Source of the DNA: Escherichia phage HEMP5
Length of the DNA stretch: 64,000 nt
Sequence record: OR424388.1
Direction: 5' to 3' (one strand)
Below are positions 51,517 through 52,256 of the stretch, one piece after another. The notes beneath the pieces are model-generated. The model searched no databases. It was not told the origin of the DNA and saw nothing but the letters and a program-made list of their open reading frames with translations. How positions within the stretch are numbered: the first letter of the stretch is position 1; each line of letters opens with the position of its first letter. Made by a program: the position numbers and the translations under genes.

Positions 51517-51591
51517 TGGTATCCCGCCCTGGGATCGAACCAGGACCGCAAACTTAGAAGGATCGTATGCTATCCATTACACCAGCGGGAC
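51517..51591 (-). tRNA. tRNA-Arg (anticodon UCU), CCA encoded
   Basis: Hand-folded cloverleaf: GTCCCGC...CTTCTAA loop...CCTGG-TTCGATC-CCAGG...GCGGGAT-A-CCA. Confidence 0.9.
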
Positions 51592-52225
51592 GTAATTTAT
51601 TTAAAAGACAAGACAAATCGGAAATCTCATCTTTTTCTAAAACTACCAAATTTTCTAAAGCTTTCCATTTACAAAGATCTCTATCTCTTTTATATCCTTT
51701 GACTTCTATATAAAAATCATAAGTGGGTAAATAAAAATCAGGAAAATAGAGATGTTCTGAACCTTCCCATTCGTAAGGAATTGGCTTTATTTTATTAGTA
51801 TATTTGATATTGTGTTCTTTTAAAAACTTAGCAACTTTTAATTCCCAGGTCCCTTTAAATTTAAACCCGTCAAACTCATATGTTTTTACTCGACCAGAAA
51901 CATTAGAAGCAGAATATGAATCAGGATTATCAAGAACAGCTTGCCGCATTCTTTTAGAATGTGCTTCTTTGCGTTCATTAGACCATACATATCCAGTATT
52001 GGCTTTTCTAAGTTTTTCTCTAGTTTTATCAGAGACTTTTATTTCTTTACCTAGTTCTTTGGCTTTGGTAAATTGATTACTACCTTTAAGACCATAACGA
52101 GGGTTATTAGGGCCGCTCATATCTAATCTATTTGGGTTAGATTTGCACCGTTTTTCATGCTGCTTTAGTGAATTTAAATTTTTACATTCTTTAGAACAAT
52201 ATTGACAAAGCATAATTTTCTCCAT
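51554..52225 (-). CDS. Free-standing homing-endonuclease-like protein: N-terminal C2HC zinc finger, NUMOD3-like repeats, C-terminal PD-(D/E)XK nuclease motif
   Basis: ORF track, 223 aa (alternative ATG at 52213 after GGAG). Motifs CQYCSKEC...HEKRC, SDKTREKLRKANTG and SNERKEAHSKRMRQA, then FPDFY...YIEVKGY. The last 13 codons and the stop lie inside tRNA-Arg. Confidence 0.8.
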   Translation of the reverse strand: MEKIMLCQYCSKECKNLNSLKQHEKRCKSNPNRLDMSGPNNPRYGLKGSNQFTKAKELGKEIKVSDKTREKLRKANTGYVWSNERKEAHSKRMRQAVLDNPDSYSASNVSGRVKTYEFDGFKFKGTWELKVAKFLKEHNIKYTNKIKPIPYEWEGSEHLYFPDFYLPTYDFYIEVKGYKRDRDLCKWKALENLVVLEKDEISDLSCLLNKLRPAGVMDSIRSF

Positions 52226-52256
52226 GAATTTTATATAGATATTTATTCATGGAGAA
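52218..52256 (-). promoter_or_regulatory. RBS/start-codon-sequestering hairpin of the endonuclease gene
   Basis: Perfect 12-bp inverted repeat TTCTCCATGAAT / ATTCATGGAGAA with a 15-nt A/T loop. The 3' arm contains the first ATG and the GGAG for the second ATG. Confidence 0.7.

Follow-up and report, generated by a model that had tools for sequence, protein, structure and literature searches.

A probable homing endonuclease gene in the tRNA array of Escherichia phage HEMP5 whose reading frame ends inside tRNA-Arg

Introduction

Endonuclease genes in phage tRNA clusters are already known from T4 (segB) and T5 (the F-Tfl enzymes), as are hairpins that mask the ribosome-binding site (RBS) and the proposal that tRNA maturation takes away a stop codon (PMC2330249). 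Among the closest described systems is SegB of T4, a GIY-YIG enzyme that targets tRNA genes and recognises their T-psi-C region. Its Shine-Dalgarno (SD) sequence and start codon lie in a predicted hairpin, and recombinational repair has been shown to copy the segB cassette together with tRNA markers (PMC2330249). Here, we analysed a stretch of 64,000 nucleotides of Escherichia phage HEMP5 (OR424388.1; hereafter the window), in which the slot between tRNA-Ile(CAU) and tRNA-Arg holds a different open reading frame (ORF), whose stop codon lies in the anticodon loop of tRNA-Arg. Our results suggest that this gene is probably a free-standing homing endonuclease of a large, uncharacterised phage family, and that the window copy is a relocated, stop-less cassette of a type that inserts into anticodons.

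Several other enzymes invite comparison. In the EDxHD family (I-Bth0305I, phage Hef), as in the window protein, DNA-binding modules come first and a restriction-fold nuclease comes last (PMC3239194). I-Bth0305I is intron-encoded, however, and the motif of the family studied here is the canonical E...PD...ExK, unlike that of EDxHD. I-Ssp6803I is a homing endonuclease of the PD-(D/E)XK type (PMC3424549), to which our family also belongs by its motif. In contrast to the family, T7 endonuclease I (PF05367) is a stand-alone, structure-specific junction resolvase without a zinc finger or NUMOD region. I-Ssp6803I reportedly targets tRNA-fMet genes in their anticodon region, and the anticodon of these genes is CAU as well. 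The mobE gene of Aeh1 is said to be a case of 'genes-in-pieces', a free-standing endonuclease gene inserted in a host gene without intron or intein; it reportedly divides a protein-coding gene, the two parts of which come together again. In our family, in contrast, the divided gene encodes an RNA, and the break falls at the anticodon.

Reading frame, genomic slot and distribution

The maximal ORF (51554..52225, minus strand) starts at the first ATG, at 52225, and encodes 223 amino acids (aa). The true start is likely the second ATG, at 52213, which gives a protein of 219 aa, because a GGAG lies 6 nt upstream of it, the annotations of phages F25, IME341 and EcWhh-1 use it, and homologues align from there. 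At its 3' end the ORF reads ...TTA AAT AAA TTAC and then enters tRNA-Arg, with no in-frame stop anywhere in the window ORF upstream of the TAA at 51556-51554. An earlier note on this DNA, made by a model from the letters and an ORF list, had claimed that the ORF lacks an own stop and that its TAA is formed by anticodon-loop bases of tRNA-Arg, and both the ARAGORN prediction and our reading of the sequence agree with this. The anticodon TCT lies at 51558-51556, and before its stop the ORF crosses 5 nt of the pre-tRNA leader, followed by the first 35 nt of tRNA-Arg. The overlap of 38 nt comprises 12 sense codons (RPAGVMDSIRSF) plus the stop, and the 13 codons of that note are reached only if the stop is counted. 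The R codon of RPAGVMDSIRSF straddles the 5' end of the tRNA. The tRNA-encoded residues are missing in homologues, and the tRNA-Arg itself is identical to that of T4 over its full length. The other two frames of tRNA-Arg meet stops at nt 13-15 (TAA) and nt 20-22 (TAG), so that the ORF runs in the frame with the latest stop.

In line with the earlier note, the gene stands in the position of segB with a different architecture. Alignment with T4 showed that both genes fill the same slot between shared flanks, ...CATATTTTGA on one side and TAAATTAC-GTCCCG... on the other, and the window gene is allelic to segB. Both ORFs abut tRNA-Arg. Unlike the window ORF, segB ends on a stop of its own, 5 nt ahead of tRNA-Arg, and the two enzymes further differ in nuclease type (GIY-YIG versus PD-(D/E)XK) and have the opposite domain order.

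The window belongs to a Tequatrovirus and is 99.9% identical to phage vB_Eco_F25 across this kilobase. Among 656 phage records matching the flanks, only four carry the gene: F25, IME341 (in GenBank and RefSeq) and EcWhh-1, which makes three phages against ~650 T-even-like genomes. IME341 and EcWhh-1 are members of Dhakavirus, and their 97% similarity to the window extends to the outer edges of both flanking tRNA genes and no further. Of phages without the gene, T4 holds segB, and in Dhakavirus MX01 the site is empty and the two tRNAs lie 5 nt apart. In this comparison, of the kind that the earlier note had proposed, the gene comes and goes in the manner of a homing endonuclease gene. Presence or absence at one precise site in otherwise collinear genomes was found in T-even phages and Dhakavirus, and also in Kuttervirus, Lazarusvirus and Karamvirus.

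Insertion of the family into tRNA genes

Named homologues with 43-67% identity come from Karamvirus, Lazarusvirus, T4-like phages of Aeromonas and two Ackermannviridae genera, and each of them lies in a tRNA array. The annotated coding sequence likewise overlaps the next tRNA in PhaxI and Kuja. Sites of insertion were read from pairs of genomes with and without the gene. Lazarusvirus Abraxas has an intact tRNA-Ile(CAU), with ...GGACTCAT and AATCCATTGG... on the two sides of the insertion point, and in Apostate and eight other records of the Lazarusvirus locus (the gene occurs in 9 of the 108 records that match this locus) the same tRNA is interrupted by 661-663 bp. The 5' part of the Apostate tRNA ends with ...ACTCAT and its 3' part begins with (AT)AATCC, which places the insertion between nt 34/35 and 36/37 with an ambiguity of 2 nt (AT). 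The stop of the Apostate ORF is again a TAA made of U36-A37-A38, here from the 3' half of the split tRNA.

Karamvirus CkP1 shows a similar arrangement. A 5' fragment of nt 1-34 (...GGCTC) precedes the gene, a 3' fragment beginning with ATAACTGGTAGGTT and ending with CCA follows it, and the stop of the ORF falls on nt 43-45. The 5' and 3' fragments have acceptor strands that complement each other, and in relatives of CkP1 such as KaAlpha the corresponding spot is taken by an intact tRNA-Met. The metagenomic locus L091 is arranged as CkP1. Family-wide, upstream fragments ended at profile positions 33-37 by nhmmer, and downstream fragments began at 36-37. The breakpoints cluster at nt 34/35, within the CAU anticodon. 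Splicing the sequences in silico by brute force, with ARAGORN as the scorer, let through too much to be informative, and nhmmer with a tRNA(CAU) profile was used instead.

The non-coding part of the insertion consists of a leader of ~37-70 nt only, and no Rfam intron family was found in the window region (E≤10) or in the loci L006, L007 (Apostate) and L010 (PhaxI) (E≤1). Hence, the element appears to split the tRNA gene without a detectable ribozyme. An endonuclease encoded by a group I intron was considered and rejected on the same absence of Rfam intron matches in the window region and these three loci.

Kuttervirus, where 6 of 269 records have the gene, differs in detail. Compared with SJ3, PhaxI has its left junction in the resident tRNA-Met after nt 27, and downstream of the ORF stands another tRNA-Met, which is complete and overlaps the ORF's stop. 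Next to the endonuclease gene, nt 1-27 of the resident tRNA-Met are kept as a dead fragment (L010 1960-2700 compared with SJ3, L094). The Kuttervirus gene thus travels with a replacement tRNA-Met allele, which may resist cleavage.

For the wider family, we took 79 loci from IMG/VR and analysed all family loci by tblastn, ARAGORN and nhmmer, in 53 clusters at 90% identity. The ORF stops inside a complete, co-oriented tRNA in 19 of the 53 clusters, 0-18 nt before a complete tRNA in 8, and inside or at most 20 nt before a partial tRNA in 13; 12 clusters have no tRNA sequence at the 3' end, and in one the contig ends. Accordingly, in 40 of the 52 clusters with a readable 3' flank the ORF ends in or at most ~20 nt before tRNA sequence, mostly of the tRNA(CAU) type. 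Where the downstream tRNA is complete, it has a CAU anticodon in 18 of 27 cases, versus 12% of all tRNAs in the family loci. The stops use conserved tRNA triplets, namely U8-A9-G10 (TAG), TAG or TAA in the D-loop, N36-A37-A38, and nt 43-45.

As controls, we used ORFs of at least 100 aa from the same loci with a nearby downstream tRNA. The downstream tRNA was overlapped by 22 of 34 family proteins versus 7 of 31 control ORFs. Control ORFs were also tightly packed against tRNAs, with 19 of 31 ending 0-12 nt before one. In size the family is considerable: clustering at 50% identity gave 329 clusters for matches at E≤1e-30 and 2610 for those at E≤1e-10. A separate genome collection contained only eight family loci, all in metagenome-assembled genomes, and the family therefore appears essentially restricted to phages; a tRNA-Met(CAU) lies at most ~35 nt downstream in four of these eight.

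Two further observations concern ORFs beside tRNAs. The seven control ORFs that overlap a downstream tRNA, by 6-86 nt (L031 4745-5407, L050 4858-5382, L073 4563-5219 and others), are unrelated to the family, and may represent other endonuclease families with the same stop-less habit. In L049, L046 and L074-L079, all from IMG/VR, the neighbouring tRNAs lie on the opposite strand. The tail of the L049 ORF (...GLEPATSRL) resembles a translated antisense tRNA 3' end, and this ORF may enter a tRNA from the opposite side.

Leader region: hairpin, promoter-like element and tRNA relic

The leader hairpin of the window gene pairs 52256-52245 with 52229-52218 and takes in the first ATG (52225) and the GGAG (52223-52220), and an outer 9-bp stem (52263-52271 with 52203-52211) covers the region of the second ATG. 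The leader has a predicted minimum free energy of -23 kcal/mol (z = -4.1), and none of 200 shuffled sequences folded equally well. This supports, at the level of predicted folding, the earlier suggestion that a perfect 12-bp hairpin sequesters both the first ATG and the GGAG of the second ATG and thereby masks the RBS. The hairpin is also kept in IME341, EcWhh-1 and L090, a locus from Logan run SRR23924977 that occupies the same slot and encodes the closest non-identical relative (84% protein identity).

The hairpin loop contains TATAAAAT, which may be a degenerate form of the T4 late promoter, whose consensus is TATAAATA. L090 has TATAAATT at this position. Family leaders were compared with those of control ORFs, using the 52 clusters with enough upstream sequence and the leaders of 161 controls. 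The exact TATAAATA occurs at -60..-5 in 13 of 52 family leaders versus 6 of 161 controls, and the SD region is base-paired in 30 of 52 versus 56 of 161. A late promoter within an RBS-masking hairpin is known from I-TevI, I-TevII, I-TevIII, mobE of Aeh1 and segB (PMC2988022; PMC2330249).

Directly before the anti-SD arm of the hairpin lies TTAGGTAGAGCAGTCAAC(T), which reads as D-loop/D-stem followed by the 5' strand of an anticodon stem, at about nt 16-33, and is therefore a candidate relic of the 5' part of a tRNA. It matches nt 21-33 of the tRNA-Met of Kuttervirus SJ3 at 12 of 13 bases. D-arm-like tRNA fragments outside complete tRNAs were found at -75..-20 in 19 of 52 family leaders versus 1 of 161 control leaders. 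When IMG/VR was scanned with an exact pattern for intact tRNAs that could have donated the relic sequence, only IME341 and one unrelated site matched. A different reading of this stretch, as a fragment of tRNA-Arg with its TCT anticodon, was rejected: judging by the leaders of CkP1, L091 and Apostate, 'TCTCC' is the anti-SD arm, and the relic ends at about nt 33.

Protein architecture and selection

The earlier note had described a C2HC finger, two NUMOD3-like repeats and a C-terminal PD-(D/E)XK nuclease. The finger and the nuclease were borne out. In an alignment of 50 sequences, C3, C6, H19, W123-E124, P158-D159, E170 and K172 are invariant and C23 is conserved in at least 90%. PHROGs assigned the window protein to phrog_15137 'endonuclease' (E=1e-40). 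The family profile built from this alignment matched structures of T7 endonuclease I (E=2.8e-6) with the four catalytic residues aligned; these are E124, D159, E170 and K172 of the window protein against E20, D55, E65 and K67 of the T7 enzyme. The Pfam family Phage_endo_I matched 34 of the 50 homologues at E<0.01. As to the NUMOD part, NUMOD3 (PF07460) has no match in the window protein at E≤1 and matches in 11 of the 50 homologues (best 1.4e-5), and two helices of the AlphaFold2 (AF2) model stand at the place expected for it. A GIY-YIG domain was found in the window protein neither by Pfam nor by PHROGs, and an NCBIfam scan of the protein gave no meaningful match.

The AF2 model has a confidence (pLDDT) of 88 and is confident to about residue 210, and its predicted core has the restriction-endonuclease-like alpha/beta fold. 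The last eight residues (212-219), within the tRNA-encoded tail, have a pLDDT below 50. The nuclease is closest to T7 endonuclease I by sequence and to the catalytic domain of I-Bth0305I by fold. The latter likeness exists at the fold level only, as the family profile had no sequence match at E≤1 to 3r3p or Vsr.

The similarity to T7 endonuclease I might instead indicate a domesticated recombination or repair nuclease, that is, a non-mobile junction resolvase. This would agree with the best sequence match, with GenBank labels such as 'endonuclease I' or 'Holliday junction resolvase', and with the ratio of nonsynonymous to synonymous polymorphism (pN/pS) of 0.11-0.17 in comparisons with IME341, EcWhh-1 and L090 (over 207 codons), which shows that the gene is maintained by purifying selection. 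Yet, a resident resolvase would hardly show so sporadic a distribution (3 of ~650 T-even-like, 6 of 269 Kuttervirus-like and 9 of 108 Lazarusvirus-locus records), nor would it be expected always within tRNA arrays, interrupting tRNA genes. The zinc-finger and NUMOD-type modules for reading sequence, typical of homing endonucleases, and the allelic replacement of segB also argue against domestication, which we regard as highly improbable.

A decaying remnant would be another way to account for the run-on into tRNA-Arg, which would then mark the loss of the native C-terminus of an inactive protein. The native stop is indeed gone, the tRNA-encoded tail is predicted to be disordered, and the late-promoter-like element is degenerate. 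Decay is at odds, however, with the low pN/pS over 207 codons, with intact catalytic residues and zinc ligands, with a fold that is predicted confidently almost to the end of the protein, and with the recent crossing of the gene between genera, and this explanation seems extremely improbable.

Origin of the overlap and proposed mechanism

A mobile homing endonuclease thus remains our preferred reading of the gene, and the overlap with tRNA-Arg most likely arose as a side product of the way the cassette inserts. The mobile unit of the family would consist of a leader of ~40-70 nt, with a T4-type late promoter and an SD-masking hairpin, followed by an ORF without a stop. Its canonical insertion point would be inside the CAU anticodon (nt 34/35) of phage tRNA-Ile2 or tRNA-Met genes, and because it is inserted there without its own stop, the 3' half of the tRNA would supply one. 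The window copy would once have split a tRNA(CAU) in this way and would now reside in the spacer between tRNA-Ile2(CAU) and tRNA-Arg(UCU), still keeping the relic of the 5' part. Since the ORF has no own stop, it reads into tRNA-Arg as far as U36-A37-A38. The 3' end of the window ORF resembles the junction of CkP1 and L091 (...A/AT AAC (C/T)GG TAG, with the slash at the junction), a tentative likeness of a few bases only.

Alternatively, the overlap could be a selected regulatory device, in which the cut of RNase P at the 5' end of tRNA-Arg removes the stop, ribosomes stall, and tagging by transfer-messenger RNA (tmRNA) keeps the level of a toxic nuclease low. The stop lies 38 nt inside tRNA-Arg, and according to what is known of T4 tRNA processing every mature tRNA-Arg requires the transcript to be cut there (PMC2330249). 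Moreover, stop loss through tRNA-Arg maturation was proposed earlier for segB and likewise for the tRNA-cluster endonucleases of T5 (PMC2330249), and the 19 of 53 clusters that end within a complete tRNA fit the same idea. Removal of the stop by RNase P, as the earlier note suggested, is therefore mechanistically plausible and not new, while selection for it is not supported. One result that the note had named as speaking against its reading, a close relative with an ORF that ends upstream of the tRNA, was found: L090 shares the leader, the hairpin and the downstream tRNA-Arg, yet its ORF ends on a TAA of its own, 18 nt ahead of tRNA-Arg. Near the 3' end of the ORF, the window shows a net loss of ~26 nt relative to L090. 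Hence, the overlap is not required in the window lineage, and across the family it is not an isolated case either. Stop positions in the family also vary (tRNA nt 8-10, 20-23, 36-38, 43-45 or beyond the tRNA) in a manner that looks like frame-dependent chance, and members that split a tRNA have no complete tRNA, and hence no RNase P site, before the stop. As insertion geometry explains the overlap fully, we consider a selected device unlikely.

Returning to insertion by a homing endonuclease, the zinc finger and NUMOD helices would read a long site in genes of the tRNA(CAU) type, and the PD-(D/E)XK domain would cut near the anticodon. The likely target in T-even phages would be the neighbouring tRNA-Ile2(CAU) of a co-infecting genome without the cassette; that tRNA(CAU) is the target type is suggested by the family loci, and from this we infer tRNA-Ile2 as the target in the window phage. 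Repair of the double-strand break would then copy the cassette together with nearby tRNA markers. Read-through transcripts from the promoter of the tRNA operon would carry a masked RBS, and transcripts starting in the hairpin loop would be translatable. A transcript that yields mature tRNA-Arg would have lost the stop of the ORF, and a lower protein yield would probably follow as a side effect.

Several results weigh against this interpretation. The loop element TATAAAAT matches only 6 of 8 positions of the late-promoter consensus. The relic is only ~18 nt long, its nhmmer match is weak (E=39), and the window leader has no match to the Rfam tRNA model (E≤10), a fragment of this size being too short for the model. 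For the window protein, the match to Phage_endo_I has 21.7 bits, under the gathering cut-off of 29.1, and Foldseek against PDB gave no match with E<0.04 for the window model. The tRNA-Ile2(CAU) of the window is identical to that of T4 and MX01 through the anticodon region, so that no self-immunity is evident if tRNA-Ile2 is the target. Finally, most family loci are uncultivated contigs in which ORF starts are approximate.

A more elaborate possibility is that the split tRNA(CAU) of Apostate, CkP1 and PX29 is rebuilt in RNA, through excision of the insert and ligation by the enzymes with which the phage repairs anticodon loops, polynucleotide kinase and RNA ligase. The element would then be a ribozyme-less counterpart of a tRNA intron, and in the window the borrowed stop would link translation of the endonuclease to RNase P and tmRNA. 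We consider this scenario very unlikely.

Feature map and neighbouring genes

The features of the locus are listed in Table 1.

Table 1. Features of the endonuclease locus and its flanks in the window of phage HEMP5.
Feature	Positions	Strand	Basis or remark
Most likely coding sequence, 219 aa plus stop, homing-endonuclease-like	51554..52213	-	Second-ATG start
tRNA-Arg(UCU), intact	51517..51591	-	ARAGORN (tct); Rfam tRNA 48.8 bits, gathering score 29
Stop codon TAA, U36-A37-A38 of tRNA-Arg	51554..51556	-	Read from sequence
C-terminal 12 residues RPAGVMDSIRSF, from 5' half of tRNA-Arg	51557..51592	-	Read from sequence
Pre-tRNA-Arg leader TAAATTAC, common to T4; right-hand cassette boundary	51592..51599	-	Alignment of window, T4, IME341 and MX01
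PD-(D/E)XK nuclease domain, residues ~108-200; predicted catalytic E124, D159, E170, K172	51614..51892	-	
Two NUMOD3-like helical repeats, residues ~58-95, presumed DNA-binding	51929..52042	-	Predicted AF2 helices H62-72 and H79-95
C2HC zinc finger, C3/C6/H19/C23 of the 219-aa protein	52145..52207	-	Alignment; weak zf-C2H2-type Pfam matches; pLDDT 96-97
Perfect 12-bp hairpin with 15-nt loop, enclosing first ATG and GGAG	52218..52256	-	Strand folding
TATAAAAT in hairpin loop, degenerate T4 late-promoter-like element, inferred function	52228..52235	-	Read from sequence
Putative tRNA 5'-part relic TTAGGTAGAGCAGTCAAC(T); left-hand cassette boundary	52257..52274	-	D-arm motif match at -58
tRNA-Ile2(CAU), upstream neighbour, ~70 nt before the start codon	52283..52356	-	ARAGORN ('Met'); Rfam 56.9 bits

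A second endonuclease gene, of the HNH type (phrog_14736, E=6e-124), lies at 52789-53421 on the minus strand and exactly replaces tRNA-Gln. It sits between the trna.2 leader and tRNA-Leu, with its stop 6 nt before tRNA-Leu, and the window holds no remnant of the tRNA-Gln of T4. Just outside the cassette (52283-52782), the window has a tRNA-Thr and lacks tRNA-Gln, and the opposite is true for F25 (L001). The tRNA array of the window looks like a mosaic built by recombination. Directly 3' of tRNA-Arg, the minus strand of 51400-51516 aligns with the start of rnaD (species 2 RNA) of T4; no Rfam family covers these positions.

In Apostate, a tRNA with a CUA (amber-reading) anticodon, annotated as 'tRNA-Pyl', adjoins the split tRNA (L007 1845-1919), and a gene like those for RF-1-domain proteins or peptidyl-tRNA hydrolase lies nearby (L007 3298-3534). 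This combination may point to reassignment or suppression of a stop codon.

Implications

A full-text literature search, of incomplete coverage so that a prior description is possible, returned no description of this family, of a homing endonuclease similar to T7 endonuclease I, or of endonuclease genes that split tRNA genes of phages. What is apparently new is the catalytic lineage, the intron-less insertion into an anticodon, and the borrowed stop codon as a family trait. If our interpretation is true, a nuclease of the T7-endonuclease-I-like PD-(D/E)XK type behind zinc-finger and NUMOD modules would be a further catalytic lineage of homing endonucleases. Direct insertion into a tRNA anticodon, without an intron and with a stop codon taken from the tRNA, would likewise be a new genomic lifestyle. 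It would account for truncated tRNA pieces and tRNA-overlapping ORFs in phage arrays, which annotation pipelines now mishandle, and enzymes of the family could serve as long-site nucleases against highly conserved tRNA sequences.

The tRNA arrays of phages are now linked to the evasion of host defences that cleave anticodons or tRNAs. SegB, which occupies the same slot, reportedly amplifies tRNA loci that act against defence (PMC13096335). By reshuffling, splitting or replacing tRNA genes of phages, as the family described here would do, endonucleases may thus shape the arms race over tRNA-based defence.

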